Source of the DNA: a virus
Length of the DNA stretch: 64,000 bases
Virus record (IMG/VR): IMGVR_UViG_3300045988_160394
Span: 160,001-224,000 of that record
Reading direction: 5' to 3' (one strand)
Below are positions 35,901 to 57,575 of this stretch, one piece after another. The notes below the pieces were generated by a model that searched no databases, was not told where the DNA came from, and saw only the letters and a program-made list of their open reading frames with translations. How positions within the stretch are numbered: the first letter of the stretch is position 1; each line of letters starts with the position of its first letter. A program made the position numbers and the translations under genes.

Positions 35901-38900
35901 AAATCTTTAAACCATGTTACAGCTGATTGTGCAGCATCTATAGATACAGCTTCTATTTCACCAAAACCACTTAAAGGATTTGTAAGCTCATGTCCATCTC
36001 CTTGAGCAACTATTTGAGCTACTTCTGCTACTTCAACTTCAGCTACTTTTCCATTAAACACTACAGGTAATTTAGAACCGTCTCCTGAGTATCCCATTCT
36101 AACATGTATTCTTATACCTGGTTGTAACATAACTGTATCAGGTAGATTCTTTCTAGCTCTTATTCTTTTTTCTTTATCGAAATAAGCTTTAGGAGAGAAT
36201 ATAGAATCGAACACATCTCTTAATCCATATATATCAGCGTATTGTTGTGTAGTTGTTGAATCAGGTTCCATAGTATATGAATTAAATGTATTATTCATAA
36301 CTAATGTACATGTATCAGCTGCTATCTTTCTAGATTTAACAACGTTAATACTAGATATAGAGTTCATGTTATAGAAGTTGTCATGTAACTTCCAAGAACC
36401 AAATTTTCTACCTTCATCTACAAATACAACATAATAAGTAGGGAATGCTCTTGCCAATCTACCTCTTTTATCATTAACAAGCATATCATAGAATGAATGT
36501 AATATATATGCTCTAGGATCTTCAGCTGATTCTATGAATACATCTTTCATTAATGAGTTCATAACCTTCTGACTAGTAGATGTATAAGCTATAGTCTTTC
36601 CATCATTACTTAATGTCATATTTATTCCACCCATAGCAGATAGGAATTTTACAGCTGATATTTTTGAATCAGATAATCCTTCTCCAGATTCAATATAACC
36701 TGTTAAATTATTTAATGATTCATAATCTCTATATTTAAATAATGTATATAAGTCATTTGCATTTCTAGTTGTAGCTGCTATAAAAGGATATATTAATCTA
36801 GCACAAAAAGCTTGCTGAGATGCTCTGTGTACAGAATTCATTAATTCCTTCATTTCTTTTTGGTCAAAACCTAAAGCTTTTAATCCTCCTGTTACAGTCT
36901 TTACATCACTAAGATTAGGTTTTTTATCAGCATCTTTTCCTTTAAGTTCAGCATTTGAAAAAATCAATAAAGGATTACCCATATATAAAGGGTTTAACAT
37001 TCTACCTAATAAACCACCATCTTCTGGCATATCTGAGAATCCAAAACTTTCATAATAGATATCATTCCAGTCATTTGCTATTATATCTATTTCAGATATT
37101 AAAAGCCCATCTACTATCATCTTTCTTAAATGAAGTAATACATTTCTTAAGAAAGCTTCTGCATTATTTTCTATGCTTGTTAAAATAGCTGTTTTATATT
37201 TCTTTATTTCATCACTATTAGAATCTAACTTATTATAATATGGGTCTAAAAATCCTGCCTGTATCTTTTCATAAGGAGAATCTTTTTCTGATACATATGT
37301 TATATTTGATTCTTTCTGCATCATGTCAGAAATCAATTTAGGATCAGAATATTGTACTATTCTTCACGCTCCAAAAACTGTTCCTGTATCGATTCCTTCT
37401 TTTATACTTAAAGCATAACTAGATTTACCTTCTATTTTATCTGTAATACAATAAGGTAAAAATGATCCTTTATATTCCGAATCTGTTTGATCTTTATTAG
37501 GATATTCAGCTAATGTCATATAATGATTTGGATACCAATCTTCTTCTTCTTTTATTCCACTAGCATATTCTCTATTTCCTGATAAAGCACATCCTGAGGC
37601 AAATAAGAATCCTATCATATATTGAATTGGATTTGCTAACTCAAAAGAACTTTTACCGAAAGAATCAGTTATTGGATGCATTTTAATTGATGTAGCTGTT
37701 GGACATAGTATTTCAATTAATTCTTTACCTTCTCCTTTTGTAAATAAATTGTTTACTGCGTCGCTACAAACTTTTTTATAGTTATTTTTTCTAGTTAAGT
37801 CTTTACTGTTCTTTTCATAATCTATAGGCTTAGATAATATTTTATCTATTAAGTTTATACATTTAGTTCTTCTAGCTTTTATTTCTTCTGCGAAAGCATC
37901 TTTGTTGTCTTCTTTTATTTTTCTAATAGCTTCATCAACACATTTATCAGCTAAAGGAGCTTTCCATCCAGGTATGATTTCTCATCCATCAGTTACGTCA
38001 GTCATAACTAATTTTTTAATAGCCATAGAAAGTCCTAATCTTTCTTCTATTGTTTCTTTCTTATCCTTAGATAAGTTTTTCATGTTTTTCAGTTTAGAAG
38101 AAATTTCTCCTTCGATGTTTTTAATTACATCATAGTAAGAGCTACCTTTTGCATTATCTGCACTTTCTAAAGTTATTCCTGTATAAGCTTCTATTTTTCC
38201 TGTTAGTTCAGCTCCATATACGTCTTTAAATTTAAACATATGAGATGGATCATCTTCTGTTTTGAATAAGTTTTTAGCTAAACCTTCTTTAACCATTTTC
38301 TTTATTACTAAAGATGTATATGGATAAGCATAAACAATATAGAAATCTGGATCTGGATAACTTCTATTTTGACCAGCGTATTTAACATATCTAAATCCTA
38401 ATTTACCTAACTCTTCTAATGAAGGTAAATCTAAATCTGGATATAGTTCTACTTTTGATAAAGCATAATTTAAGTTAAAGTAATTTTTAATAGATAAGCT
38501 AGAACTTCCATTAAAGTCAACTCTTCCACCTTCTGCTTTTACATCCAATCTTCTTAAAGCTTCTCTTTGTCTTTGAGTTCTATCTACAGAAGTTAATCTC
38601 ATAAATATAGAATATACTCCAGGGAAACCTTCCATAGTATCTACTTCTATCATATCTATTAATACTTCAGATACTCCTAACATTGTAGTTAAATCAGATT
38701 TGATTTTAATAGGCCATGCAGGTAAAACTTTTCTATATGTTTTTGCAGTAGCAGATGCTAGATTAGGAAGAGAGTTTAATGCTGAAACTATAGTTATATC
38801 GTCAGTAACTAATTGAAATTCTAATTGTATATCTTGTCCACCTATATATTGAGGACCTTTACCTTCTATAGCTTTTAATGAAACTTCTGTAAAACTGTTA

Positions 38901-41893
38901 GCCATATTAGCCATAACATTAGTACATAGAATATTTGTTACATAAGGTACAAAAGGCATATTAGCTGGATTTTTGTAATCCTTAATATAGAAGTCTATTT
39001 CTTTATTGTATTTGTTTAATGGATCATCATCAGGTAAATCTTGAGGATTATCTTCTTGATTTATTCCATTAATTAAATTCTTTAATGCTGTAACGTCATT
39101 ACTTTTTCTTAATATAAAAGTATTTTTATAATGATCAGATTTTTCATCATCTGAAATATTTAATGTAGCTAATTTAAATATACTATCTTTATTAAATGTC
39201 ATTTCAAATGACACTCTCATACAATCATCTATAAATATTTCATTAGGTTTTAAAGGATTGTTTTTATCGTTCTTACCTAATACTTCTTTTATGTTAGACC
39301 AGTCTTCATTATTTATAGATTCTAAATTTAACTTTAAGCTAAATTCCCATATAAGATGATATATATCATTAGCATCTTTAGTTATTATTTCATTCATTGT
39401 TAAGTCTTTTAAATACTTAGGATTATTAAAGTCCCCTAATAAAGCATTTTGTAAAGGTAATATATAGTTCTTAGTTACACTTGATAAAGCTTTGTCGTTT
39501 GTATCATAAATAAATATTCTAGACTTATCTGTATTACAAATATTCTCTTCTCTTGATCCATCTCCTACAAATAGAGGAGGATTCATCTTTATAAAATGCT
39601 TCTTCTTAACAGCATTACCTATTAAGTTTTCTATTGCTATATTAAACTTTTCATTCTTATAGTTCTCAACTGAATCTAAAGCTAATGCTAATTCACTTAA
39701 TGATTTAACGAATGTTTTAGCATCATCACTTAAATCTATTGAAGAAGTTGGTGTTAATAAGTTTTCATCTCTATCTTTTTTTATTTGAAGAGCATTCGCT
39801 AACCAGTTTTCATCTGGTATATAAAAACTTATTTCTCCTTTATTTACTTTAGGACCGCACTCATACCACCATGGACCAACAGTATTTTTATGAGTATAAT
39901 ATTGTAGATTATACTCATAGCTATTAAATTCCATAAGACTTAAGTTCGTTCCAGCTATTATAGATCTTTGATAGTAATATCTGAATATCTCCCAGTTAAA
40001 ACTTTTTGCGAACATAGGAGGCATTTCTGCTAGTTTTTCATTATCTTCTTTACCTGTATCTTTATCTATAGGTATATCTGGCATATAAACTTTATAGTTA
40101 AATTCTTTTAAAGTTAATATTACTTTTAATAGTCTAGGGAAACCTTCTACGTTTTGAATACTCATATTTGATAAAGCAACAGCTTCTATTCCTAATACAT
40201 CATTTATATAACCGTTCTCTATAGGCAAGAAAGGAGCTATTTTGAATTGGGCTATTAAACTTCTTAAGCCATCCATTTTATATTCAAAAGATGTTCCATT
40301 AGGACTTGTATAAACATAGTCTATTCCATTTATACCAACGTCTTCGTAAAAGTATAATGTTAGTTCTAACATTTGCTCATTATGTCCTTTATGTTTAGCT
40401 TGAGTACCTTTACTTCTCATATTAGGTATTCTTTCATAAGTACATTGAGTAATGTTTCTTATACTTTCTGGCGGTATAAGCATTAAAGTATCTCCTATGA
40501 ATAATGCACAATTTCTAACTTTAGTAAAATCTATTCCTGTTAATTCTTTATGAAGTTTTAATCTATCTTCATAAGATTTTTCTGATATCTTATTGAAACT
40601 ATCTAACCATTCTATATTATTTCTATCATATGACCATAAATTAAATGAATCAGATATTCCTGAACCAATAGCTTGTAATTCTGGAGAGCTATTAAATTTA
40701 GGATTAGCTATAGTTGATTCTGTATTACATAAAACATATTTATTTAAGTTTATCCATTTACCTTCATATTTTACATAAACAACTCCTAGAGATCTTTTAT
40801 AGTTATCCATTCCATATGGTATATAATTATAATTTGTTATAGGAAGGTCTCCATAATACATATCCCATTCTTTAATCATAAAATCGACAGTATCTTTTAA
40901 ATAATAAATGCTGTTAAAAGTTCTATCATCATTATCTGAATTAGTTTTACTTGCTTTAATTCCGTTTGCATTTAAAACTAGAACTATCTCTTCAGATTTT
41001 TCTAAAACTTTTCTAGCAGCTTCTTGAGCTTTATAAGCATCTTTAATAGTGTTAGAAGTAGATTCGTCTTTTTGCCCCATAACAATAAAGTACTTATATC
41101 CATCTTTTTTATTTATATATGGATTAGCACTCATTCTAGTTATTATTTCAGTGTATAAAGTTTTATCTCCACTTTCTCCTACTTTTCATAAAGTTACTTT
41201 GTCGTCATTTTTTCTTTCTGTAACTTTACCACTTTTTCTATCGTAATTTAAGTTTTCATAAGTTATAAGAGTTTTACCATTAATCATCTCTTTCATTTTA
41301 CCGAAGGTTGTTTCTGTTACTCTTTTATCATAGTCTTCTTCTCTGCATAGTTGTACTTCATAGTGAGGTATTTCCATAGAGTCTATACCTAATGCTCTGA
41401 CTTGTATTGATTGTCCTCCACCCATCTTTTTAAAGAAGTCTCTAAAGTTATTGTACTTTACACTTTCAGAACCATTAGTAAACATTATAGGTTGATTACC
41501 ATCATTTATATCTTCTAATCTAAAAGACCATGTATCTCCGTCAAACTTATTTAAATCTCAAGTAGACCCATTTTTATCTATATCAGCTTTATTAGCTTTT
41601 AATACGAAAGCTCCTTCTTCTGAATAATGTCCTGGATTAGTAGAGAACGGTGCTTCTACATAAAAGTATGAATCTAATATTTCTTTATCAGAATATTCAC
41701 CATCTGTATTTTTATCTACGTATTGTTGATAAATTTCTGACATTAAATCTTCTTGCATCATTTCATCCATATCAGGAGTTAAAAACTTTTTAGGATTTAC
41801 AGTATTAAAGTCGCTTCTATTATTAGCCATACTAATATATTTTTCTTTATTCTCTTTTAGTTTTTTTAGTATGTCTTTATTATCTTGACCCAT
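32939..41893 (-). CDS. Giant 2984 aa protein: N-terminal SNase-like nuclease motif, large unknown region, gp27/XkdQ-like baseplate hub region (table 4)
   Basis: ATG 41891-41893 with AAAGGAGA 5 nt upstream. Seven track fragments (41558-41893, 41186-41485, 37982-41134, 37364-37681, 35309-37336, 33644-35269, 33128-33529) all have a start coordinate = 2 mod 3. I translated every gap and the only interruptions are the boundary TGAs (41558, 41186, 37982, 37364, 35309, 33644, 33128). No SD precedes the internal ATG/TTG at 41485, 41134, 37681, 37336, 35269 or 33529. The first true stop, TAG 32939-32941, lies inside the next gene's SD. Confidence 0.7.
34900..36450 (-). other. gp27 / gpD / XkdQ-like baseplate hub region inside ORF 32939-41893
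   Basis: ...INVVKSRKIAADTCTLVMNN..., LQPGIRIHVRMGYSGDGSKLPVVFNGKVAEVEV and, after TGA 35309, LGDPSIKPHDRIYIHDTYEDMMGQFEVEAVIHTMSIDTGFTTSI match the three conserved blocks I associate with phage hub / late control D proteins. Boundaries are approximate. Confidence 0.5.
41372..41542 (-). other. Staphylococcal-nuclease (SNase/thermonuclease)-like motif pair near the N-terminus of ORF 32939-41893
   Basis: KFDGDTWSF (41522-41542) is followed ~46 aa later by VRALGIDSMEIP (R 41396-41398, D, S, E 41372-41374). SNase has DGDT then R-x4-D-T-x-E (FRLLLVDTPE). The R-x4-D-[ST]-x-E spacing is identical, but the DGDT-to-Arg spacer is ~30 aa longer. Confidence 0.45.
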
Positions 41894-41941: not shown

Positions 41942-44900
41942 TTAAAAATTCCTATTTATATAATTCTCGATATCTCTATCTGTTACTGGCTGATCTTTTT
42001 TATTTTTTATATTCATGTTTATATTAACAGCTCCACCTACTGTAGCTTCTGCTGCTTTTGCCATGATCTTCTCCATATACTTTCTACCTTTTTTAGTATC
42101 CGCCTTTATATTTATTATATAACCTTGTTGAGTATTCCCTGTCACATAACCGCTATCTTTTTCCATGAATTCAGGAATGCTCATAATTTGTTGTGATTTA
42201 TTTTCTTTGCTAACTTCACTAGCTTGTTTATCATTTAAAGGATTACCAGAAGCATAGCCTCCAATCATTAATCCAGCTGCTAAACCTAATACTGCTTTAC
42301 CCATTCCTCCTACTCTTACATTTTTAACTCCATCAGCTAAAGATTCTGTCATACTTTCAGATAAACGTTTTATTTCTGCGTCATATTGTCCAGAGTTCAT
42401 TAGTTTGTTTTTTGCAATATTACTTTCTTGTTGAGCCATGCTTCTTTGAGCTATTTCATCTAAAGCATTTTGTAAGAAAGCAGGATCTCCATATCCCATT
42501 AAAGCTTGGTGTCTAGTTGCAAAAGTACTAGCTTCTTCAGCAGCTGCTCCAATAGAACCATTATACCAAAGTTTTTCAGTTCTTGCTCCATTTCTTCCAG
42601 TAGCTTCTATAGATGCTTTATAAGATAATGCTAGTTTGTCATGAGACATTTCTTTCATTCTTCCTAAGAATTTTTGTTTCATTGCATTAGCTCCACTTAT
42701 CATAGGGTCAGCTTGTTTTTCTATATTAGCTCTTTCTTCTTTGCTTAATATAAGATGTCCCATATGTTCATATGATTTCTTAAATATATCATCACCATAA
42801 TCATCTAACCAACTGCCTAATTCATTTAATGATTCTGTAGATGCTACTGTTCCTTTATTATTAAAAATATCATTCATTGCTTTTTTGAAGTTTTTAATTC
42901 TATTATCATCATATACTCCACCAGCTAATTTTTTAGAAGAGATTACTCCTTGTTCAGCTGTATCTAAAGCATTCCAAACATAGTTATTAAAAGCTATTTC
43001 TTCAGGAGAAGTATTTCTAAATACATCAGCTAACTTAACAGCATTTAAAGCTTGGTTAACTGAACCTGTTGCAGCTAGTCCTGTTTTAGCCATCATTTCT
43101 TGTGCATACTTATCTACAGACATTCTTTTAATAGCTGTAGCTTCTAATTTACTAAACGTATCATCATCAACATTACCTTTTATAACAGTTAAAGCTTCGT
43201 CTAGTATTTTGCCAGGCTCTGATGCTTTATTTAAATCTATATCAAATTTTTCATCTTTAGTTATGTCTTTAGCCAAACTTAATAAATTAGTTGTATCTTC
43301 ACTTAGCTTATTAAACTCTTTTACAGTAGGCATATGAGCAACAGTTGTAAAAGTCTTTTTACCTAGAATAGATTCTCCGCCTGGAACTAAAACCATGTTA
43401 TCTGGATTAGATAAGTTTTGATTTTTTATAAAATCTTCTTTAATAGTTTTAGCTGCTTTATCTTGCCAATATTTATTATCTGTAACAGCAACACTATACA
43501 TAGCTCTTTCTTGTGCAGCAAAATAATCATATACTTCACCTGACATTAAATTGTTTTCTATTGCATAGTTTCTACCACCATTTTTATTAGCTAATTCATA
43601 TAAAGCTCCATCTACTACTTTCCCATCTTTATCTCTATATTCAATTCTGAATGAAGATAAAGAGTCACCGTCTTGGTCGGCATTAGCTTTTAACATTGTA
43701 GATACAGATATCTTAGTTTGATTACCTTGTAATCTTTTATCTAAGAATACTCTAGTTTGGTTTATAGAATTATTCCTTGTATTTGGATAACGGTCAGTTA
43801 TATCAAAAGTACCATATTCTAATAAGAAATCATCCATTTCACTTTCTGTTTTAAATCCAAACTTCTTTAATGTTTCTGGTTTATAATATCCCATCTTTTC
43901 CATCTGTTCTTTTGATACGTATTTATAATCAAAATAAGCTTCACCATTAGCTTCTCATTCAGCTATTGTTTTACCCATTATTTTAGATTTTTTAGTAAGA
44001 TCATCTCCAACAGTTACATCTATACCTGCCTCTTTAGCTGCCTCTACTAACTCTTTAGTCGTAGTATCAGTTATTAATCCAGATGATTTAAGTCTATAAG
44101 CAGTTGCATTTATTTCTATTTTACTAGCATTATGATGCATACCATTCTTACCAAATATAGAATCTCTTATACCTTCTATAGCTTCTGTTCTATTTCCTAA
44201 AACTCTTTGGAATAGTCTTTCATATTCATCATCTTGTTTCCCAGATAAAGATTCTAATTCTTCTATACTATGTTTAAGCTTATTTAATTTTTGATGTCCT
44301 ACATCTCTAACTTCCTCATCTGCTATTTTCATACCAGTACCAGGGACAGCTAGATATCTATTCTCCTGACCAAACTTTTCACCTAAATCTACAACTATGT
44401 TTCTTTCTACTAAATCATCAACTTTAAAGTTAACATCTTTGATATCAATAACTTCAAAGCCTTTTTGTTTCATATCTTCTAAACTTAAGTTATATCCTCT
44501 ATTAAAGCTATTAGCTTTCATAGCCATTTGTATTTTATATTCTTTTTCTGCACCTTCTACACCTAATTTAATCTTATATTTTTTAGCGTATTCATGAATG
44601 TCTTTTAAATGAGCGTATCTTTCTGTTTTAACCATATTATCTGTTAGTAGTTCATCAGTGTATGGATTAAAGAATTGATCATCTTTAAATTGGTCTAATA
44701 AACCTTTTAATGATTTCTCTCCTATAATATCTTTAGAAAAAGTAACAGTACCATCAGCATTTTCTGTTAAATGATCTTTGAAGGCATGTGAGCTTAACAA
44801 TGTTTTAGTATCTAGTTCTCCATTATTAATCATTTTTTCAATTTGTTCTGCATGAGCTTCTGTCAAGGATACCCTTTCTAATATAGATAATTCTTGGTCT

Positions 44901-47900
44901 CCAAACCTCATAGTTTTCATAGTGCCAGCTTTAGAATCTATATCTTCTAACATAGAATCTATTTTCATTATTTGTTGTTGAATAGCACTTTTCTCACTAG
45001 GGTCGGTAGACTTAATCATTTGCTTTTCTAGTCCTATTCTTTCTTTTTTTAATTCTTTTTTTGTTTTTAACATTTCAAAGTATTCTGCTGTTACACCTGT
45101 TTGTGTTTCTGCATCTCTAACATATTTTACGTTCTCTCTAGTATTAGTACCTATAGCAACTTTAGCATCTTTTATAAACTTACCATCAACAGTTATATCT
45201 TTTTGTATAGTAGCATATGAACCAATAGCTTCTTTTTTGTATTCATATTTACCATCTTTATTCATAATATAAATATCTTTAGCTACTAATCTATCATTTT
45301 CATCCATATCTTCTAATTCTTCATCTAAAGATTTTATTAATGCTGTAAACTTATCTTTATCTAATGATGTAGTTTTATTAACAGAATAAAATTTATCATC
45401 TATAAAGAATCTACCTTTCTTTTGTTTAACGCCTATAGATTCATAGCTTTTAGTGTCTTTATTTAAATCATATTGTTCTATAAATTGAAATGCTTTATTA
45501 GAATTTATTTTATCTACAATAAAATCTACAGCATCTTTCTCTGAACCATATTTCTTACCTAAGCTGTTAATAGCTTTAGATAATAATCCTTCATACATTT
45601 GTCCTATATTACCGTGCTTAGCTACGGCATCATTAGCTAATAAATGAGTTTTATTTTTTAGTATCTTATCGAATAATAATGCAGAATGCATATTTCTTTC
45701 TACAGTTATAGCTTTCTTTAAATCATCTAAAGATTCAAAACCTATTTTCTTAAGTGTACTTTCAGATAAATCTTTGTTTTTAAAGAATATAGCATCTACA
45801 GTTTCATTAGTAATTACTTTGTCTTTTACTATGTCCCAAGAATCTGTTTCTTTAAAAAATTGTTTTATCTTATTGTTGTATGATCCAGTAGAAGCATAAA
45901 CTATATCTGTCATACCTTTTTCTGCACCAGATGTCATTGTTTTAACATACCCCATAGCAGATATATCTTCTATAGCATATTGTCCAGTAATACCTTCTTT
46001 AGATAGTATCTTCTCTAACTTAGCAGCCATTTCTGCTTGAGTAAGAGGTTGATTGTTTTTATCTAAAAATTTAGATAAGTTCTTTCTTATTATTTTATTT
46101 ATATCTTCGTCTCTTAATTTAGTTCCATCACTTTCATAGAAGTTAAAATTGAAAACTCCATAATGCATTTTAGAAGCAAAGTCTACATTTCTTTCAGCAA
46201 AGCCTTTCCATTTAACAGCTGATTCACCTCTGCTTACTAATTTACCAGGAGAAGAATTGAATACTAATTCTCCATTTTTAAATTCAAAATTACCTCTATA
46301 GTTTAGTAATGCTTCTTGTTGTTTCTTTAAATCATTTCCTACTAATTCATTTAATAAAGCACTAACGTCATAATTTTTACTAAGCTTCTGAGTACTAGCT
46401 GTTCTTAATCCATAAGCAGCTTCATGCACTCTTGAATCTATAATTCTCTCTTGCTCAAAAGTAGATATTGAATTTCTTATATAGTTATAAGCTTTTTTCT
46501 CTATATCTTTTGTTTTTTCATCTACATTAGAATCTTTCATTACCTTAGCAAAGTTATTATCTATTAAAACTTGTAAAGCGTTGCTACTAACATATGTTGT
46601 ATCCATCATTACATCCGTAGTTGTTTTACCTAATCCAAAATAATTTCTCATAGTTCTTTTATCCATAATATCAGAACTTAAAGTATTACCAGCAGTAATT
46701 CCTAGTTTGGATTTCTTTATATCATCTACTCTTAATTGTAGAGCATTACCAGACTGAGTTATAGGTGGTCTTTGAGAATTATCAAAGATAGAGAATGTAG
46801 AGTTTCCTGGTCTATATCCTCTTATTCCTATAAGTGCAGATGTTTTATTTTCTTGACCAGTAAAACCTAATTCTTTAGTTAAAAAAGCAAATTCATTAGA
46901 TACGTTTTTGTCTTCTTTAATTTTATCTAATACAAAGTTAATATTCTTAATCAAATCTCTAGTCATTTCTGGATTAATATCTTCTAATGCTTTCTCTTCT
47001 TTTACATAATATTTAAGATGTTGTTTCATATTATCTAAGAATTCTTTATCAGCAAAATCTATTCCATCTACTATATGATTTAATTTTTGATTTTCTCCAA
47101 ACAAATCTACTAATACATTTTTTATATCTGATATATCTACTCCATAGTTTGAATCTATATCGTTACCTCCAAAACCATTTATGGTAGATCTACTTCTTAA
47201 TGAAGCATTATTTAAAGATACTAATCCTACTAATCTATCAAAACCTTCATCTTGGCCTTTCTTCTCTACTACTCTTTGTACGTTATTACTTATACTATAT
47301 CTATTAAGATTATCTAAAGATGAAGCAGAACCTCCTTTTACTTTTCTACCGTCAGCTTTGAAAGTTAACTTATTATTTACTTGTATTTTCATAGAACCTA
47401 ATTCTAAATACATAGTCTCAGAAGGATCATTGTATTTTATTTTAGGCATAATTAATTCCTCTGATCTACCATTTTTAAATAATAATAAAGAACCATCTTC
47501 TTGTACAGATATAGATGCTCCAAGTTTATCGGCAGTATGAACTACATCTTTTACATAAGTATTTAAATCTTTATATAAGTTGTCATACAATATCTGTTTA
47601 GTCCTATCACCTTTTTTTATTACATTTCTATTAGGTATATAATACTTTTCAACTAAACTTTTAGCATATCTTTCAGCAGATTTCTTAGTACCATCTAGAA
47701 CATTTATATTTGTTCTTTCAACTATATTATTTGCTATTTGTTGAATTATTGGTTTCATATTTTCACTATTTAAGTATCTAACAAATTCAGTATTACCTTC
47801 TAATGCTTTCATAAATGTTCTGCTACCATTTAATATTCCATTTGTAACATTAGACTCTTTAGCTTCTCTCATTCCTTCAATTATAGCTTCTGCTATTTGA

Positions 47901-50782
47901 TACGGATGATAATCTTTATCTTTAAAGCTATTTTTTGAACTAAACTTAAATTGTTTCTTTATATTTTTAAAAGCCTTTGTATCTTTTAAAACCTCATCTT
48001 CTTGTAACATAGCAAATAGTTTTTCAACTGCATCTTTTTCGTAAATTAAATTACCTTTTTTATCTTTACCATGAACAGCCTCTGTAGCTGTTTTTATTAT
48101 TGAGTAAGGGCTATTAACATCATTAAGATTAATCTTTAATATGTTTGCTGTATCTAATGATTTAGCAGTATCTATATAATTAATTCTTTTTCCTCTAATT
48201 ATCTTATCGTATTTTATTTCATATAGATTTTTAAAAGTATTAAAATCTGTTTGTAAATTAACGTCGCCTAATTTAATCATATCGGCAATATCATCATTAC
48301 CGCCTCTAAATTTGTTATTAAATATTCATTCAGCAGTCGTTCCTTTTACTTCTTTAACTGTTCTATTAAATAATTCTTGTTTAACACTTTCAGCCGTTTT
48401 AGGATCTTTAAATACTTCAGTAGCTTCTAAAGCTTCTATTATATTTTTAAACATATTACCATAGCTATTAACCATTTCTAATCCTGTAGCATTATTATCA
48501 ACAGTTGATTGTAATAATCTCATTACATCATTTTTACTATGTCCTAAAGTAGCTATAATCATTTCTTGTGATTTTATTAATTGAGCATTACTAAGTTCCA
48601 TAGCCATTTGCCCTTTAGAAACTCTTTCTGCCATGATAAGAGATATATCTCTACCTGTAATATCCATGTTCAATTCTTTAGATAAGTTTTCTTGTAGATC
48701 AAGTACATTCTTTATTTTCTTATAAGAATTATCTCTAAACATAGAGTTGTCTGCTCTAGAAATTAATTTCTTTTCATTATCAGCTAATACAACTCTATTA
48801 AATAACTCAGTATCAGAAAGACCTTCTTCATTAACTGGTTTAAAGACAACTTTATTAGTTTCTTTATTTTTGTTAATTTCTCTAATATCAAATCTGTCTT
48901 TCATTCCTTTTTTGATTTGAATTCCATTATCTGTTCTTTCTGCAACAATATCAAAGTTACCGCTTAAAAAAGCATTCATCTCTTTTTCTGATTTAAATAT
49001 TAGATTTTGTGTTAAATCTCCTAGTCTTGTTGTAGTTGCGTAATCATCATGTACTGCCATGTTTAATTGAACTTGATAAAGTTTTTTACCAGAATATTCA
49101 GGGGCTATATCTCCCATCATTGTTCTCAATTCATCTGTTAGTTCTATTTCTCTTATATTAGATATATCGTAAAAAGAACCTTTATTAATTCCGAAACCTG
49201 CACTAAAGTTTTCATGCATAGCTCCACCAGCTGCTTGTAAGGCTTCATCTCCTTTACCTAGTAAATGATTATCAGCTGTATATATAGTTCCTGTACTTTT
49301 ACTTTGTGCAAAGTTGAAATAATTTCTTCCACCATAACTAGTACTAACTCCTTTTTTAGCTTGAAGTATTTGCTTACCAGGAGTTAATACTGTATCTTCT
49401 GTTTTTATATTTTCTATTAAATTGTTTATGTGCTCTATAACAGATACATTCCCTGGAAGACTTTCTGATTTCTTTGTAAAAAACCATGATAATCCAGTAA
49501 CGTCATCTTCAGCCATATGAGGTTTTAGTCCTTCACTATTAAACAAACCTCCATAATGTTTTTGTAATAAGTATTCCTGTCCTCTTACTTTATCTATATC
49601 TCCTATTTTTGCATTTCCATATACAGAAGATAATGAATTATAATCTGTTGCTAATTTAACTCCACCTAAAACATCTAGATCTGCATAAGATGGAATATTA
49701 AAGCCAACTCTTTTACTTTCGAAATAATTATTTAATTTTCCATTATAATCGTTATTCCATTTTAATAACATATTATTTAAAATAAGTTCGTCAAACGCAT
49801 TACTGTTAAAACCAGAAATCATTGCTTTTTTATTATTAACAGCTGTTTGAGCTTTACTTATAGTTTGTGTAACTTTTAATATATCTGCTTTTATTCCATC
49901 AATTTCTCCTGTTTGATGATAAACATTATTTAAAACTTCTGCTCCTTTTTCTATAACTGAAATATCTTTATAGTTATTTCTATCTACATTAGGGAAATTA
50001 GTTGCTTTAAAATATTTTTCTCCTTTAACTTTTTCATATTTAAAATCTTTATCTGCATATTTAGCTAAACGCATAGCTGTTACTTTTAATTCTTCGTCAC
50101 TATCTATAGTTCCATTTTCTATAGCCTTTCTTATTTTATTTACAGTTTCTTCTTTTTCTTTATCTGACATTCCTATAAGTACACTTACATTATCTATTAC
50201 CTTACCTGTTTTAACGTCATATTCTTGCATAGCAAATTCTGTAATAGCATTAGGTCTTCATATATTATTTTTATCTTTTCCTCCAAGAGTTTCTAAGTCC
50301 CAAACAAAAAGACTTCCTCCATTACTTTTTAGAGAGTTAAAATATTTATAAGATTCTTTTCATGAATTGATAGATTCATTAGCAGAACCTCTTTGTTTAC
50401 TATGAACAACATTACCTAAATTCTTTATTGTTAATCCTAACATATTCTCTGATGAATTAGATTTATCACCTATTATTTCAAAGAAGTTTAATCCTTTATC
50501 TCCGATGTTGGTTAATTGTCTAAGCTTTTCTGTTATTACATCTATATCGCCAGTAGCAACTTTTTTATTTCATGTATACTTATGCTTATTAATAAACATA
50601 TGGTCAGAATCTTTTATTAAATACTTACCACTATGTAATAATTCTATTGTTCTATTTATTTCTTCTATAGCCGCATTTTCTTTATTTATATCTACTTTTT
50701 TTGAAGCTTCAATGTTACGTTGAGCTATACGGATTCTATCCATAGTAGTTCCAACTATATTAGTTGATTTATTATTAGCCAT
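41942..50782 (-). CDS. Giant 2946 aa protein with DEDDh exonuclease signature and beta-prime-type DPBB (YonO / crAss gp66-like RNA polymerase) signature (table 4)
   Basis: ATG 50780-50782 with AAAGAGGTGG upstream, after terminator 50835-50865. Fragments 50570-50782, 48326-50230, 43955-48280 and 41942-43903 all have a start coordinate = 2 mod 3. The gaps 50231-50569, 48281-48325 and 43904-43954 were translated and contain only TGA. In-frame TGA at 50570, 50360, 50258, 48326 and 43955. TAA at 41942. See the motif features below. Confidence 0.7.
43664..43792 (-). other. Beta-prime-type double-psi beta-barrel catalytic signature (NADQDGD) inside ORF 41942-50782
   Basis: DRYPNTRNNSINQTRVFLDKRLQGNQTKISVSTMLKANADQDGDS was compared with E. 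coli RpoC (as I recall it) [42 protein letters not shown]. Both have R-x-P, then 34-37 residues, then NAD-x-DGD. NADQDGD is encoded at 43664-43684 (plus strand gtcaccgtcttggtcggcatt). Confidence 0.6.
46202..46249 (-). other. Candidate beta-type DPBB lysine motif (weak)
   Basis: PGKLVSRGESAVKWKG loosely resembles the RpoB PGDKMAGRHGNKG motif, with the same K-x3-R spacing and then a longer spacer to KG. It lies ~850 aa upstream of NADQDGD, similar to the beta-to-beta-prime motif distance in a beta/beta-prime fusion. It is suggestive only. Confidence 0.25.
49500..50300 (-). other. DEDDh (DnaQ/RNase T-like) 3'-5' exonuclease signature inside ORF 41942-50782
   Basis: Exo I is FVWDLETLGG (D 50297-50299, E 50291-50293). 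Exo II is GFNSNAFDELIL (D 49790-49792). Exo III is KPHMAEDDV (H 49517-49519, D 49502-49504). The motif order and the H-x4-D spacing match the DEDDh family. The Exo I to Exo II spacing (~150 aa) is longer than usual. Confidence 0.55.
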
Positions 50783-50873: not shown

Positions 50874-51188
50874 TTATAATACAATACCTAGTTTAATCAG
50901 GATACTGTTCATTCTATTAACTTCTTTTCTAAGTTCAGAATTTTCTTTTGTCAAAGTTTCTATCTTTTCTTCTAGAATCTTTGTTTGTTTAGCATATTCT
51001 TCTTTAACTTTTGAGTTTTCTATTGAAAGCTTTTCTATCATCAACATAAGTTGTTCGTTAGCTGTTAAAATAAGATCTTGCTTTTTATTATTTTTGTTAA
51101 TTCATAAACCATACATAGTTCCGATTAAAGTTATTAATGCAACAATAATAGTAGCATCAATTGAATTTAAACTAGTTAGAATATCCAT
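50874..51188 (-). CDS. Small membrane-anchored coiled-coil protein, 104 aa, absent from the standard-code track
   Basis: ATG 51186-51188 with AAGGGGTG 5 nt upstream. The sequence is MDILTSLNSIDATIIVALITLIGTMYGL-W(TGA 51102)-INKNNKK..., then a heptad-like Leu/Ile/Glu/Lys-rich segment. TAA 50874-50876 is followed by a terminator hairpin. Confidence 0.6.
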
Positions 51189-51209: not shown

Positions 51210-54200
51210 TTAAAATAACATTGAAACCAATCCTTGAATACCTGATTGGACACCGTATTCGCCTATTTTTTTAACATCACTAGCAGTTTGACTTATGTCT
51301 CCAACTATTCATAGTCCTGGTGCACTAGTAGGACTCATAGATATATTTTGTAAAGAAACTCCTAATCCAGACATTGCTGTTACCATATTAGAAGCATATT
51401 TGATACCACCTGTACCTTTATCAAATTTATGAATGTCTGGTGCATCTTGATATTGAGCTTTTCCTTTCTCTGATTCGTAATATCCGAAATCAGATAATAA
51501 CATACCTTCGTTCTGAATAGTTTTCATTTTAACATGTTTCAAATTAACGTTAGGTTTCCAACCTCTTCAGTTCATACCAGGTAGTTTATGCTTTTTGAAA
51601 AACTTCCTGTTACTATCTACTTTTTTTACTTTCTCTCTTCAAGCTATTTGTAGAGGTTTCCTTAAATATTCTGGTAAAGATTTAAGGATTTTTTTTCTTT
51701 CGTTCTTATCAGTTTCATTCATAAAGTTTATAAAATAATCTTTATATTGATCTGGTATTGACGCTAAGATTTCATCTTGTGTAGCTCCTTCTGATAATCC
51801 ATAAATAGTAGATTCCATTGCTTTCTTGTAAGCAACTGCTGCCTTAGTATACTTACCACCTTTAAGCATGGTTTGTTGTGATTGTAAAGCCTGTATCTTA
51901 TTGTTAATCTTCATCATTTGTTGATCATATTCATATCCACCAGCTGTATATTTATTACTCAACTTTTCGGCCTTTTTAATCAATTTAGCAACTTTTTCTT
52001 TATTTTTATCTATTTTTCTAAAAGCTTTCTTTATATTTACGCTTCCTTCGAAAACAAAAGCTCTTAAAGCAGCTTGATTATATAAGCCTTTATATTTCAC
52101 ATATTCTAATCTATCAAAATATTCATCTAGTTCAAATTTCTTTTCAACTTTCTTAGGTATTCATTTTCTTCTAAACATGTCTTTATCAAAATCAGGATTC
52201 TTAATAGCTGATACACCTAATCCAACTAAAGCACCTATAGCTGCACCTTTACCATGTCCTAATTCATCTAATTTTAAATATCTAGATAATGTTTCTCCAG
52301 CAAAAGCAAATGATGCTGTTGCTTTCAATGGATTTTCAGCATTATTTCATCCTCATGCTAAAGACCCTAAAACTGCTCCAACTTCTGCTCCTACTTCTAT
52401 ATTAGTTTTCTTTCTTATATTAGTAGTTCTAACTCCTAAGTTCCATAAAGCAGCAGTACCCATTCCAAGTAAAGCTGTAGGGTTAGTTGCAGCCATTAAT
52501 GCTCCTGCTCCATATTTTAAATAAGATTCACTAGTTAGTTTCCCTATATTCATAAATAAAGCAGCGGAAGCTACTGCACCTGCATGTTGTAACATAGACT
52601 GTCCTGATATTCTATTAAACGCAGGTTTTACGAATCCTTCAATAGGATGATCCCAAGTAGTTAATGAGTTACCATAAATTTGTTCATTCATGAAAGATTC
52701 TCTAGCTGTTTCTATTTTTAAATACTTATTATGAAGGAATGGAATATTAGCATGACCAATAACTTCTTGAATAGCTCCTAATGTTTCTTGCATAGCTGAA
52801 ACATTTGCTAAATAACCTATGGCACTTGTATCTTCTTTATCTTTAGTTGCCATTCCTCTTTCTATTAATGTCTTGTTAATATTAGTTCCTAATCCATCTG
52901 TATCATATATAACAGCATTAGTAATTAATCCATCTTCTAATCTTTTTATAGCATTAGCTGATGTTCTATAGTTAATATGTTGACCTACATCTAATACATC
53001 ATGGACATCAGCATCTTTATCTAAAACAATACCTCCAAGATTAAGTTTTTCTCCTGAAGCTAATTCTACAATAGAACCATTGATGCTTTTAACTACACCT
53101 TTTTTCATTTTTACATTATTACGTATATATCTGTAATTAAAGAATTCATGGTTCCCTGACATTTTATTAGCCCTTTGTTGAATCTCTTTCATCTCTTCTA
53201 TTAACTCAGGGTCTTTTACAGTATTTCTAGCAATGTTTCTCCATATCTTATATTCTTGTGATGATGGTGCTATGTCTGCTAATATTTTAAATCTATCAAA
53301 TGCACCATATTCACCAAACTCATCTGAATGAAGTTTATTAAGAGTTTCGTATCCTTTACCAGGTAATCTCATTTCTCCTTTAGGTAATGAAGTAAATGGG
53401 TCCCCTGTTAAGAATCTTTCAGGTAATCATTCAGGCATATTATTTCTTAATGGATTATATCTAATAATAGACTTATCTTCTGATGGAAAGAAACGTCTAG
53501 CTATCTCCATTAATTCTCCACCAAAACCACCTATTTGAGAATCTCAGAATCCTCTAGAGAAACTTGTCATTGCTCCTGCATCAGCATATCTCATTTTATA
53601 GCTATCTTCTCCAAAAGCAAAGTCTCCTAAGAATCCATATATACCAGATAGCTGTTTAGCAGAATATATTCCATCTTGCATAAAATTAGTTACAAGACTT
53701 TTATTAACCAAACCAGGGTCATATATATCACTATAATATTCTGAATTTCTAACATTCATTTGATTAACAAGATTAGTGTATACATAAGTACCTTTAGTCT
53801 TATCAGGTAATACACCTTTATTGTATGCTGGGTTAGATTCATAACCAGTTAAATAATTCGCTGCTTTTTTAATATACTTATTTAATCCAGAAACTATTTG
53901 TCTAGCTATTACTCCTGTTTCTTGAGATTGGCTAGATATTGTTTGTACAATAGGGCTATTAGGATCTATTGCTTGTGTTTTATCGAATGCTGGATTAACA
54001 TCTCCATTAGGAACATTTAAATGATTAAAAGATTCAACATCATTTTCTACAAAACCTACTCCAGGAGAAGAAACTTCTCCATGAGAAATGTTTATATTCA
54101 TATGGCCGTCTCCTGGATTACCATATGGAACATACTTAGCATTTCTTACATCAGTACCTTCAAAAATTAAAACATCATCATTTTTATTTCCTCTAGCTTT

Positions 54201-57200: not shown

Positions 57201-57575
57201 TCTTACTTGATCTATGTTTTTTATTTGACCAAATAAATTATTTTTTCTAGTACTGTTAAATTTAAAAGAATCTTTTCTAAGTTTTCTTTCTTCTTCAAAA
57301 GTCTTTTTGCCTAATCGGAAAGCATCTCTTAAATCTTCACCAATAGTTCTTTTATCTAATCCTGTTCTAGTTGCTTTTAAATCTCTAAGCTCTTTATTAG
57401 CTTTTTTAATAGCCGTTTTAGCAGAAGGAATAAATTCACTTGATAAAGTTCTTTTTAAAGATGTATTATTAAAAACAGCTGCACCGCCTCCTATGGCTAA
57501 TGCAGCTGCTCCAACTTTGGCGACTTTACTAACTGTAGAAGAATCTCTTTCTTTATCTCTTCTTTTTTTAGCCAA
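51210..57575 (-). CDS. 2121 aa protein in the tape-measure position (putative tape measure / tail-lumen protein) (table 4)
   Basis: TTG start 57573-57575 with AAAGAGGTGA 5 nt upstream. Fragments 54966-57575, 53544-54299, 52353-53372, 51639-52100 and 51309-51542 all have a start coordinate = 0 mod 3. I translated all gaps. Thirteen in-frame TGA: 54966, 54714, 54636, 54459, 54330, 53544, 53427, 52353, 52347, 52161, 51639, 51567, 51309. TAA at 51210. Hydrophobic Gly/Ala-rich segments near the N-terminus (VAKVGAAALAIGGGAAVF) and the C-terminal third (GAEVGAVLGSLAWGW, GKGAAIGALVGLGVSAI). It lies after the chaperone-like genes, as in sheath-tube-chaperone-tape measure modules. Confidence 0.55.

Follow-up and report, generated by a model that had tools for sequence, protein, structure and literature searches.

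We propose that a 2,946-aa protein, whose gene lies in a phage's tail module, is a giant multidomain virion protein of the 0305phi8-36-related jumbo-myovirus lineage, and that it carries a diverged single-chain, two-barrel RNA polymerase (RNAP) that is injected to carry out transcription. We put the probability of this explanation at about 65%. As the putative RNAP core lies in a protein that is encoded beside the baseplate hub, the phage probably brings along a transcription enzyme of its own when it delivers its DNA. The gene lies in a window of 64,000 nucleotides, which is the whole stretch of viral DNA that we analysed (Table 1).

Genetic code and homologues of the giant protein

Positions 41942-50782 (minus strand) translate as one open reading frame of 2,946 codons, followed by a TAA stop, when TGA is read as tryptophan. 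The five internal stops (codons 71, 141, 175, 819, and 2276) are all TGA. An earlier sequence-only reading of this DNA had described a single ORF of 2,946 aa, and this is borne out under TGA = Trp, as nothing but TGA interrupts the frame. With table 11, the gene is split into ORFs of 653, 1441, and 634 aa. In the window, the 26 main genes contain 88 in-frame TGA codons versus 102 TGG codons, and the stop codons are TAA (21 genes) or TAG (5 genes) and never TGA. Also, in the family alignment, homologues often have tryptophan or another hydrophobic residue at the TGA columns (tryptophan in 43 of 120 homologues at codon 175 and in 28 of 120 at codon 2276). The use of code 4 (TGA = Trp) by the genes in the window is well supported.

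At 50% identity, the family of the giant protein falls into 183 clusters; it is not annotated and occurs commonly in metagenomes. Nearly all of the clusters have 2,700-3,300 aa, and the core occupies an equivalent position. There are 12 close homologues, and full-length homologues are 2,900-3,400 aa long. At least three cultured Bacillus jumbo phages have members, which are labelled only as structural or hypothetical proteins (gp034 of KLEB27-3 is deposited as "structural protein" and gp095 of WH1 as "virion structural protein"). Our literature search found no paper on KLEB27-3 or WH1. The conservation counts given below are from 121 full-length members with mutual identity of 50% or less, which have diverged to 18-25% identity. 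Across these members, the near-invariant positions are R-x-P...S...DxDGD, K-x7-K, E1695, H1723, and K2617.

Table 1. Positions in the window of the giant gene's features and of its neighbours in the tail module.
Feature	Position	Strand	Basis
In-frame TGA codons of the giant gene	50570-50572, 50360-50362, 50258-50260, 48326-48328, 43955-43957	-	Translation
Predicted 3'-5' exonuclease domain of DEDDh type (DnaQ/ExoI-like), near N terminus, residues ~150-440	49463..50335	-	Motifs and hhalign
Putative RNA polymerase module (single chain, two barrels), residues ~1300-2640	42863..46885	-	AlphaFold2 model and Foldseek
PGK...KWKG block, PGKLVSRGESAVKWKG, residues 1512-1527	46202..46249	-	Inside predicted beta strands; basic residues not conserved
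K1614-x7-K1622-G (VKTMTSGAEKG), candidate basic pair of beta-like barrel	45914..45943	-	Conservation and RpoB spacing
K1722-HGNIGQ-1728, resembles RpoB motif at 1104-1114	45599..45619	-	Motif likeness
Beta-prime-type catalytic segment, R2331-Y-P2333...S2339...N-A-D2369-Q-D2371-G-D2373	43664..43792	-	Invariance in family alignment
Long helix, residues ~2540-2587, with K2566, G2573, N2576 (KTGLAATGSVNQAL), candidate bridge helix	43022..43165	-	Model helix
Helix and loop, residues ~2593-2620, E2610-Q-x-V-I-S-x-K2617, candidate trigger-loop region	42923..43006	-	Conservation and model helix
Glycine-rich hydrophobic membrane-type helix, residues 2826-2846 (GMGKAVLGLAAGLMIGGYASG)	42245..42307	-	Read from sequence; conserved family-wide
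Conserved C-terminal domain, residues 2880-2946 (GYIINIKADTKKG...GGAVNINMNI)	41945..42145	-	Family alignment
Baseplate hub, 2,984 aa, downstream neighbour	32939..41893	-	phrog_20474, E=4.8e-168
104-aa protein, N-terminal membrane helix and coiled coil, between two giant genes	50874..51188	-	Sequence
Upstream neighbour, 2,121 aa, 0305phi8-36 ORF145 homologue, candidate tape measure	51210..57575	-	blastp
Two chaperone-position genes	57598-58392, 58396-58812	-	Position
Three tube paralogues	58841-59905, 59905-62460, 62547-63212	-	phrog_9206 matches all three
Tail sheath, C-terminal end, cut by window end	63286-63891	-	phrog_16991, E=5.9e-37

The putative catalytic segment

At 43664-43792, the segment reads (D)RYPNTRNNS...KANADQDGD(S), from R2331 to D2373, so the NADQDGD motif is encoded as the sequence-only reading had described it. 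When we checked for the motif among homologues, we found D2369, D2371, D2373, and P2333 each in all 121 members (R2331 in 120, S2339 in 118, and G2372 in 112). This invariance, together with a predicted structure that matches RNAP largest subunits (see below), supports the idea that the DxDGD segment is a beta-prime-type site. The distance from the arginine to the first aspartate is 38 residues, as in both RNAPs of P23-45, gp96 and gp64 (35 in RpoC and 39 in gp66 of phi14:2). In shuffles of the giant protein, D.DGD alone appeared in 8%, and R.P-(30-42)-D.DGD in 0.06% (12/20,000). The conservation and rarity of R-x-P...DxDGD are far more than expected by chance. Furthermore, the best local hhalign matches on RpoC, gp96, and gp64 are all at their catalytic sites (P from 0.01 to 0.03), and the D-x-D-G-D loop is paired with residues 456-467 of RpoC.

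In cellular RNAPs, the asparagine two residues before the first aspartate senses the ribose 2'-OH. This residue is asparagine in 59 of the 121 members and lysine in 32; gp66, gp96, and gp64 have glycine at the equivalent position. We take the arginine of R-x-P to be R425 of beta-prime, which contacts the NTP ribose.

Predicted fold of the putative polymerase module

We built an AlphaFold2 model of residues ~1440-2640 on homologue P0001 (72% identical to the window protein), using no templates, and obtained a pLDDT of 84.8 and a pTM of 0.81. (An earlier, shallow model of the region gave only noise.) The sequence-only reading had suggested structure prediction and Foldseek as a check, and the outcome favours an RNAP fold, with reservations. 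When the model was compared to the PDB, the best 50 matches were all (50/50) to RNAP largest subunits, whether beta-prime, Rpb1-type, or phage RNAP. The probabilities were 1.00 for AR9 (7s01_d), 0.99 for phiKZ (8que_A), and 0.99 for cyanobacterial gamma (8syi_D). On the other hand, the E-values were borderline (1e-3 to 8e-3), and no beta subunit was among these best 50 matches. Because the TM-scores were low (0.08-0.27) and the rmsd was large, the match is local and not global. Against BFVD, the matches were giant-virus RNAP subunits, LEF-9, and crAss-like giant proteins (the latter at E~1e-2). A second check, a significant profile match to RNAP DPBB families, came out negative with Pfam, PHROGs, phmmer and hmmsearch against the PDB, and hhalign. 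Overall, the model suggests that the giant protein contains a putative, very diverged two-barrel RNAP core. We infer that there is a second barrel and that the enzyme is catalytic and uses rNTPs.

Within the module, the first half would be beta-like and would contribute K1614 and K1622. The sequence-only reading had instead pointed to a weak RpoB-like block with the pattern PGK...R...KWKG. This block is encoded where it was described, yet its basic residues are not conserved: K1514 is present in 26 of 121 members, R1518 in 52, K1524 in 22, and K1526 in 25, and the only conserved residues are G1513 (115/121) and G1527 (81/121). We therefore rejected PGKLVSRGESAVKWKG as an RpoB-like block and consider it a chance resemblance. 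More likely beta-type residues, as judged from the sequences, are K1614-x7-K1622 and KHGNIGQ (1722-1728), which start about 100 residues downstream of the rejected block. K1614 (119/121), E1621 (117/121), and K1622 (120/121) are highly conserved, and the K1614-x7-K1622-G spacing is identical to that of K1065-x7-K1073-G in E. coli RpoB (we verified the RpoB pattern). In the model, the two lysines are on adjacent predicted strands (E169-174 and E178-184). Comparison to RpoB with hhalign did not recover the K1614/K1622 match. In KHGNIGQ, H1723 is present in 116 of 121 members and N1725 in 76. The best local hhalign match of the family's B region on RpoB (1094-1129) was not significant, either with a single RpoB sequence (P=0.27) or with a 121-sequence RpoB alignment (P=0.023).

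The beta-prime-like half would come next, with R2331-x-P, then the Mg-binding D2369-x-D2371-G-D2373, and then the candidate bridge helix and trigger loop. The candidate bridge helix is a 48-residue helix (H1100-1147) in the confident model, and K1126, G1133, and N1136 (in model numbering) are nearly invariant. We judged its likeness to the beta-prime sequence RKGLADTALKTANSGYL by eye only. The candidate trigger-loop region includes a model helix (H1153-1176) and near-invariant E...S.K residues, among them K2617 (117/121). Comparisons to beta-prime with hhalign gave no support to the bridge-helix or trigger-loop match.

Predicted exonuclease domain and conserved C-terminal domain

Near its N terminus, the giant protein has the motifs of a DEDDh exonuclease in the expected order: Exo I (DxE) as D162-x-E164 (WDLETLGG), Exo II (NxxxFD) as N326...D331 (GFNSNAFD), and Exo III (HxxxxD) as H422...D427 (PHMAEDD). 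Each of these six residues is kept in 118 to 121 of the 121 members. The region has no match in Pfam, and the best match of the family profile in the PDB is E. coli exonuclease I (E=0.05). With hhalign, the ExoII and ExoIII motifs align with E. coli SbcB (P=5.6e-4, probability 30%) and the ExoI motif aligns with DnaQ (P=0.02); controls had P from 0.26 to 0.73. The extreme N terminus is poorly conserved, and about 850 residues lie between the exonuclease and the polymerase module.

After the polymerase module come a variable linker, the membrane-type helix, and the C-terminal domain, which is the best-conserved stretch of the giant protein (mean conservation 0.49-0.62). This domain aligns weakly with the extreme C terminus of ORF146 of 0305phi8-36 (i-E 0.006 in a 9-sequence search). 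Hardies et al. (PMC2147016) found that conservation between ORF146 and its counterparts is confined to the final 60 residues.

The giant gene lies in a contractile-tail module

The tail sheath, the three tube paralogues, the baseplate wedge proteins, and the hub were all confirmed in the window, and the order of the tail-module genes is that of ORF141-147 of 0305phi8-36 (and is also found in L006). This supports the placement of the giant gene in a contractile-tail module of the 0305phi8-36-like type. With tblastn, the hub matched the hubs of Moorella MTATph1, Bacillus KLEB27-3, Edson, WH1, 0305phi8-36 (ORF147), and Acinetobacter ME3. The 2,121-aa upstream neighbour is similar by blastp to ORF145 (1e-40), which is a virion structural protein, and also to Moorella CDS0026, KLEB27-3 gp031 and gp033, and a 2,180-aa protein of L006. 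L006 also has a 117-aa gene at the place that matches the 104-aa gene. By the homology of the hub and ORF145, 0305phi8-36 shares a lineage with the phage in the window.

The sequence-only reading had placed the giant gene between a gene in tape-measure position and the hub of a contractile tail. The contractile-tail module and the adjoining hub stand, but calling the upstream neighbour the tape-measure position is doubtful, as in 0305phi8-36 it was ORF146 (2,537 aa; immediately upstream of the hub) that was assigned as tape measure (PMC2147016), and this is the giant gene's own position. This raises the possibility that the giant protein is itself the tape measure, with embedded enzymatic domains and an RNAP fused to it as in P23-45, and that the 2,121-aa neighbour has another role. 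ORF146, in the same slot, was seen in virions by mass spectrometry (according to a note in its record), and the giant protein's membrane-type helix and its conserved extreme C terminus, with the weak alignment to ORF146, also fit a tape measure. Nevertheless, we consider this possible rather than likely. The ORF145-like neighbour also has several hydrophobic Gly/Ala-rich segments, as a tape measure would, and a steadier length across relatives (about 1,900-2,200 aa), and at least ~1,500 of the giant protein's 2,946 residues are predicted to form globular enzyme domains. No Pfam tape-measure domain was found in either protein (the neighbour has no Pfam or PHROG match at all). If the giant protein is the tape measure, then this changes its structural role and not its enzymology.

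Similarity to known phage RNA polymerases

The sequence-only reading did not recognise a virion-packaged RNAP in a myovirus-type particle as described, but there are precedents: gp96 of P23-45 (PMC10770324) and the packaged multisubunit RNAPs of phiKZ-like myoviruses (PMC7824862). The closest precedent appears to be gp96 of the long-tailed Thermus phage P23-45, a tape-measure-fused two-barrel virion RNAP whose activity and presence in the virion have been proven (Chaban et al. 2024, PMC10770324). Like the giant protein, gp96 has a single-chain two-barrel RNAP within a giant protein of the tail module, the same 38-residue spacing of R-x-P...DxDGD, membrane segment(s) in the same chain, a sequence that standard profiles do not recognise, and presumed delivery by the tail. 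However, gp96 is a siphovirus protein and has its RNAP at the N-terminal end of a tape measure of 5,002 aa, which also includes a metallopeptidase domain, whereas the giant protein belongs to a contractile tail, has its RNAP at the centre (residues 1300-2640 of 2,946) with a DEDDh exonuclease upstream, and has no peptidase domain that Pfam could find. Aligning the family to gp96 with hhalign gave only 54 columns (P=0.01), and no homology to gp96 or gp64 was detectable beyond the catalytic loop.

Phage phi14:2, a crAss-like virus, also packages a giant single-chain two-barrel RNAP in its virion (gp66, 2,180 aa; Drobysheva et al., bioRxiv 10.1101/2020.03.07.982082; PDB 6VR4). It shares the R-x-P segment but differs in having DFDID instead of DxDGD, a podovirus-type particle, and a gene outside of any contractile-tail module, and no exonuclease domain has been reported for it. 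The best hhalign match to gp66 is outside its catalytic site (P=0.21-0.46), and the DFDID site was not matched. The jumbo myoviruses related to phiKZ or AR9 have contractile tails and package RNAPs of the same superfamily, and non-virion RNAP subunits of AR9 and phiKZ are among the most probable Foldseek matches of our model. Their RNAPs, however, consist of four or five polypeptides and are encoded outside of the tail module (PMC7824862). YonO or QDE-1-type enzymes (PF05183) are also single-chain two-barrel RNAPs of phages, and one of them is orf99 of 0305phi8-36. But they have about 800 aa, are not in the virion, and are encoded among early or replication genes, and PF05183 did not match any of 12 core sequences (at E<=10) or 8 full-length members (at E<=1).

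ORF146 of 0305phi8-36, labelled "hypothetical tape measure protein", resembles the giant protein in that it is a giant virion protein with an exonuclease-like DIETTG and a similar extreme C terminus, and it follows the ORF145 homologue and precedes the hub. A DxDxD motif is absent from ORF146, nothing in it matches the polymerase module, and the overall similarity is too weak for family membership. The virion RNAP of N4 has a T7-like right-hand fold rather than two barrels and is located in a podovirus capsid rather than encoded in a tail module. It is a functional analogue: a virion protein of ~3,500 aa that is injected with the DNA and transcribes early genes (cited in PMC7824862).

How the giant protein might act

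In our proposal, the giant protein would be made late, together with the tail genes, and would be ordered as N terminus, DEDDh exonuclease, ~850 residues, RNAP module, linker, membrane-type helix, and C-terminal domain. The C-terminal domain would anchor it in the tail beside the hub, where it could act as the tape measure or be an additional protein in the lumen of the tube. Contraction of the sheath would then expel it into the host, and it would transcribe the first DNA to enter, without the host's RNA polymerase, as has been shown for P23-45 gp96, crAss-like gp66, and N4 vRNAP. We infer its presence in virions, its location in the tail, its injection, and the role of the exonuclease. Because ORF146, which was detected by mass spectrometry, lacks any DxDxD, its presence in virions carries over to the giant protein only across a weak similarity. 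Also, a protein of ~330 kDa cannot pass the tail tube while folded and must unfold to do so, which counts against injection.

So far, the two-barrel RNAPs of phages have been found lineage by lineage (the crAss-like gp66 and then P23-45 gp96), as every standard annotation profile misses them. The family of the giant protein adds its 183 clusters to the putative members of this group. If these proteins are active and injected, then contractile-tailed phages too would use tail-delivered, host-independent early transcription. This would also explain how expression starts in a host that reads TGA-rich phage genes differently, and reconstructions of RNAP evolution would gain a new and very diverged branch. 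One would then have to ask why the polymerase is accompanied by a DEDDh exonuclease. As the hosts of cultured family members are Bacillus cereus and B. australimaris, the hypothesis is directly testable.

Alternative roles

Besides the tape-measure explanation, the module could have an RNAP fold without being an injected transcriptase: it might be a catalytically idle structural module, or an enzyme that works only inside the infected cell, such as a non-virion RNAP that is encoded in the tail operon by chance. Indeed, 0305phi8-36 uses a positional counterpart without the RNAP motif along with its separate YonO-like RNAP. Still, this seems unlikely. The strict invariance of the metal-binding and basic residues in 121 members at 18-25% identity argues for retained catalysis. 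The fused membrane helix, the hub-proximal C-terminal domain, and the fixed slot between the chaperone genes and the hub all suggest a location in the tail, and homologues have been deposited as virion or structural proteins.

It is quite improbable, but of interest, that the polymerase and the DEDDh exonuclease form a joint machine for nucleic acid synthesis, of a kind not yet seen, that is injected via the contractile tail. In one version, a two-barrel enzyme with a proofreading or processing exonuclease might make DNA or prime on the incoming genome; this would place a PolD-like two-barrel DNA polymerase outside of the Archaea. In another version, the polymerase would be an RNAP, and the exonuclease fused to it would degrade host nucleic acids or signalling oligonucleotides at entry.

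A related idea is that the two-barrel module makes DNA on the incoming genome, as a PolD-like DNA polymerase or a primase that is proofread by the DEDDh domain. DNA polymerases classically have a fused DEDDh exonuclease, archaeal PolD also has a two-barrel core (PMC10770324), and the asparagine before the first aspartate is only partly kept. We consider this very improbable, as the best 50 PDB matches are all RNA polymerases, with PolD absent among them, the arginine of R-x-P is invariant, and the exonuclease is more than 850 residues from the polymerase module. Moreover, gp66, gp96, and gp64 are single-chain phage RNAPs with proven RNA synthesis that also lack this asparagine.

Finally, that the RNAP resemblance is an artefact of a chance motif and a misleading model is hardly credible: no sequence-profile match is significant, Foldseek E-values are only about 1e-3 with low TM-scores, and the first, shallow model gave noise, but the combined motif is rare in shuffles and invariant in the family, the second model is confident and template-free, its RNAP matches are uniform in two independent libraries (PDB and BFVD), and hhalign independently lands on the catalytic site in each of three RNAPs.

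A single reading frame with TGA as tryptophan

The giant gene between the tape-measure-position gene and the hub gene had been called as a single ORF of 2,946 aa, and this is borne out if TGA is read as tryptophan. The gene has 2,946 codons and a TAA terminator. Its five internal stops are all TGA (codons 71, 141, 175, 819, and 2276), and under the standard bacterial code it would be split into separate ORFs of 653, 1,441, and 634 aa. Reading TGA as tryptophan in the window is justified because the 26 large minus-strand genes contain 88 in-frame TGA codons (vs. 102 TGG codons), because these genes end only in TAA (21 genes) or TAG (5 genes), and because homologues frequently have tryptophan or another hydrophobic residue at the columns where our protein has TGA. 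(TGA is a sense codon across the whole window, 1–64000. The G+C content is 22–32% throughout, and the minus strand carries every gene.) We found no tRNA genes within the window, and hence no suppressor tRNA-Trp(UCA) there. Relatives that also recode TGA include a 158-kb contig with the homologue P0176.

A large family without annotation

The protein has no significant match in Pfam, PHROGs, or the PDB sequences; Pfam also gave nothing for 12 core sequences and 8 full-length homologues. A word-indexed search found 12 homologues (2,085–3,397 aa, 23–72% identity), and a profile of the core detected 183 clusters with E ≤ 0.001 among 1.84 billion representatives, 106 of them at E ≤ 1e-30. Nearly all of these clusters are of 2,700–3,300 aa, with the core at a constant relative position, and no cluster is named. 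A profile of the family found no RNA polymerase (RNAP) among the PDB sequences, only a weak match to exonuclease I.

Neither megablast with the gene nor tblastn with P0001 (a homologue that is 72% identical) matched any of 50,697 GenBank phages, and members in cultured phages were reached only indirectly, via homology of the hub and the family HMM. These are KLEB27-3 gp034 (2,434 aa, “structural protein”) and WH1 gp095 (2,515 aa, “virion structural protein”), both matching that HMM with E ~ 4e-29 and both containing NRYPTIN...DYDGD or DHDGD, as well as one protein of Edson. We found no publication on the KLEB27-3 and WH1 members. A scan for related loci in IMG/VR found no relative; among GTDB genomes, a first scan found nothing and a second gave one relative, on a 104-kb phage-like contig binned as Clostridium sp. 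Given this contig and the members from Bacillus phages, a host range within the Firmicutes is likely.

A conserved motif resembling the catalytic site of beta-prime

The sequence-only reading had likened 43664–43792 to the active site of RpoC, and the protein indeed reads R2331-YPNTRNNS...KANA-D2369-Q-D-G-D2373 there. It had also staked the claim on conservation among homologues: in an alignment of 121 full-length members, R2331, P2333, S2339, D2369, D2371, and D2373 are each conserved in at least 116, and G2372 in 112. (The other residues that reach 116 of 121 are K1614, E1621, K1622, E1695, H1723, K2617, and those of the exonuclease discussed below; a glycine-rich hydrophobic helix at 2826–2846 and the C-terminal domain at 2880–2946 belong with them.) The pattern R.P-(30–42)-D.DGD arises in 0.06% of shuffles of the protein. 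Judged from the sequences, chance is ruled out because the motif is invariant across a family with just 18–25% overall identity.

For comparison, we took E. coli RpoB and RpoC, phi14:2 gp66, and P23-45 gp96 and gp64 from public records. R-x-P, 35–39 residues, and then DxDxD is the layout reported as common to this whole set, and the distance from R to D in our protein (38) is the same as in gp96 and gp64. Alignments of the family profile to these single sequences with hhalign gave only weak, site-specific matches. The profile comparison supports the assignment in part: the best local alignments to RpoC, gp96, and gp64 lie exactly at their catalytic sites, but with P of only 0.01–0.03, and no match to an RNAP is significant.

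A predicted structure that resembles RNAP largest subunits

P0001 was modelled as a proxy. A first AF2 run, with a 12-sequence alignment, was discarded (pLDDT of 58.8, an unreliable catalytic region, and noise from Foldseek). The second run, on residues 1440–2639 of P0001 (about 1443–2640 of the window protein) and with 36 diverse family members, gave a model with pLDDT of 84.8 and pTM of 0.81. When this model was compared to 350,542 PDB chains with Foldseek, the best 50 matches were all RNAP largest subunits, including beta-prime of many bacterial species, yeast Pol I A190, a subunit of the AR9 non-virion RNAP (7s01_d, probability 1.00), the phiKZ non-virion RNAP (8que_A, 0.99), and cyanobacterial gamma (8syi_D, 0.99). 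The proposed RNAP fold is favored by every one of the best 50 matches, but their E-values are just 1e-3 to 8e-3, and the similarity is local, as TM-scores were low and rmsd was large. In BFVD, the top two matches are apparent relatives (A0A7R7G2L5_2, E = 1e-9, and an Acinetobacter phage ME3 protein, E = 2e-5); lower named matches include giant-virus RNAP subunits, LEF-9 of baculoviruses and nudiviruses, and giant proteins of crAss-like phages.

Candidate features of the beta-like half

In such enzymes, the second barrel contributes two basic residues (PMC7824862). The sequence-only reading had placed a beta-type motif, PGK...KWKG, at 46202–46249. This block (PGKLVSRGESAVKWKG) is present, but neither the Lys nor the Arg residues in it are conserved across the 121 members, and we rejected it as the beta-type motif for that reason. 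Instead, K1614 and K1622 are invariant, are eight residues apart and followed by glycine, and lie on adjacent predicted strands of the model; E. coli RpoB has the pattern K1065-x7-K1073-G. When this region was aligned to RpoB with hhalign, the top local match was THLLAND-AVAKHGNIGQMYEGLL, which aligns to 1094–1118, shortly downstream of the lysines of RpoB (P = 0.27 with one RpoB sequence and P = 0.023 with an alignment of 121 RpoB sequences; controls gave 0.14–0.68). Together, the two lysines and THLLAND-AVAKHGNIGQMYEGLL are no more than suggestive of a beta-like half. No beta chain was among the 50 Foldseek matches listed. (An initial guess that KHGNIGQ corresponds to GRHGNKG of RpoB was dropped, as it aligns better with PSRMNIGQ of RpoB.)

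The helix at 2540–2587 is a candidate bridge helix and 2593–2620 is a candidate trigger-loop region, both from the secondary structure of the model and invariant residues. With hhalign, neither the bridge helix nor the K-x7-K motif could be confirmed.

A predicted exonuclease domain and a conserved C terminus

Near the N terminus, D162, E164, N326, D331, H422, and D427 are each conserved in 116 or more of the 121 members, which makes them as invariant as the polymerase residues, and jointly they form the DEDDh exonuclease signature. In hhalign alignments, the Exo II and Exo III motifs of this domain matched those of SbcB (P = 5.6e-4), and the Exo I motif matched that of DnaQ (P = 0.02); the weak match of the family profile in the PDB is to E. 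coli exonuclease I (E = 0.05). We know of no exonuclease fused to a virion RNAP. No fold could be assigned to residues ~440–1300. Across the protein, conservation is highest in the C-terminal ~65 residues.

A contractile-tail module

As had been proposed, the gene lies in a contractile-tail module: sheath, tube, hub, and baseplate wedge genes were found by PHROG matches and position (see table). The same gene order is found in 0305phi8-36 and on a 93-kb metagenomic contig with a distant family member (P0011). Homologues of the hub are found in 0305phi8-36 (ORF147), Moorella phage MTATph1, the Bacillus phages KLEB27-3, WH1, and Edson, and Acinetobacter phage ME3.

Features of the tail module and of the giant protein
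Feature	Coordinates	Strand	Size (aa)	Evidence or position
Sheath, C-terminal end	63286–63891	−		phrog_16991, E = 6e-37
Tube paralogue	62547–63212	−		phrog_9206
Tube paralogue (middle)	59905–62460	−	851	phrog_9206
Tube paralogue	58841–59905	−		phrog_9206
Two small chaperone-position genes		−		After the three consecutive tube paralogues
Giant protein		−	2,121	Between chaperone-position and 104-aa genes; homologue of 0305phi8-36 ORF145
Small protein	50874–51188	−	104	Between both giant genes; N-terminal membrane helix and coiled coil
Putative two-barrel RNAP protein	41942–50782	−	2,946	
DEDDh (DnaQ/ExoI-like) exonuclease domain	49463–50335	−		Residues ~150–440 of the 2,946-aa protein; three motifs in order
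Hub	32939–41893	−	2,984	After the 2,946-aa protein; phrog_20474, E = 5e-168
Baseplate wedge proteins		−		After the hub
Large gene	25625–30694	−	1,689	Downstream of baseplate wedge
Large gene	23781–25625	−	614	Downstream of baseplate wedge
Large gene	21923–23773	−	616	Downstream of baseplate wedge
Large gene	19381–21906	−	841	Downstream of baseplate wedge
Repeat protein	13535–18844	−	1,769	

Several of these proteins are unusual. PHROGs labels phrog_9206 as “major head protein”; we consider the three paralogues here to be tail-tube proteins by position and by the annotation of 0305phi8-36, and the middle one is enlarged. The hub far exceeds T4 gp27-type hubs in size and has a hydrophobic glycine-rich segment at residues 2343–2361, and its family is labelled “endolysin” in PHROGs. 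The 104-aa protein has only weak holin-like matches; the distant relative L006 has a 117-aa gene at the equivalent place (9562–9915). The four large genes downstream of the baseplate wedge have no PHROG match at all and presumably encode fibre proteins or proteins of the baseplate periphery that are specific to this lineage. The 1,769-aa protein also has no PHROG match. Within it lie at least three long repeats that open like YFEGIKSFGE..(N/D)KISILS.GKNLF, and it probably serves as a fibre or receptor-binding protein made up of repeated modules.

A proposed role in delivery, and comparison to known systems

We propose that the protein is expressed late, as a structural protein, and that its C-terminal domain docks it at the tail's hub end, where it could be the tape measure itself or a second protein in the lumen. 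Contraction would release it, the hydrophobic helix would then insert or anchor it, and the two-barrel polymerase would transcribe the DNA that enters first. Possible roles for the exonuclease are to trim nucleic acids at entry, to attack those of the host, or to aid the polymerase. (Catalysis, the rNTP or dNTP substrate, presence in the virion, and injection are points that we infer.) This is the delivery logic that was demonstrated for P23-45 gp96, crAss-like gp66, and N4 vRNAP.

The sequence-only reading did not recognise the arrangement as described, and this is true in part. The tape-measure-fused RNAP of P23-45 (PMC10770324) precedes it and is the closest described system, but our phage has a contractile tail, its RNAP is central rather than N-terminal as in gp96, and its companion domain is a DEDDh exonuclease, without the peptidase. 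There is no significant sequence similarity to the P23-45 RNAP, and the protein failed every test that we ran for membership in the gp96/gp64, gp66, or YonO/QDE-1 families. The packaged RNAPs known from myoviruses are the multisubunit enzymes of phiKZ-like phages. We found no paper that describes this family as an RNAP (subscription journals were outside our coverage). The protein should be of real interest to specialists in phages and in transcription, and the proposal is directly testable in the cultured Bacillus phages.

Relatives at the same position

In 0305phi8-36, the protein at this position, ORF146, was seen in virions by mass spectrometry. ORF146 (L007, 9800–17413) was published as a “hypothetical tape measure protein”; at residue 1223 it carries DIETTG, a DnaQ-like motif. 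It resembles the family in its extreme C terminus and in this exonuclease-like motif but, unlike the family, lacks DxDxD and the polymerase motif. These sequences therefore suggest a gain or loss of the polymerase module within the lineage related to 0305phi8-36. That phage has a separate YonO-like RNAP of its own (orf99).

At the equivalent position, Moorella phage MTATph1 (L008, 8892–16248) has an ORF of 1,309 aa and, after it, a transposase gene and two small ORFs. This arrangement resembles a giant gene that an insertion element has interrupted. The first part of the 1,309-aa ORF weakly matches the exonuclease region of the family.
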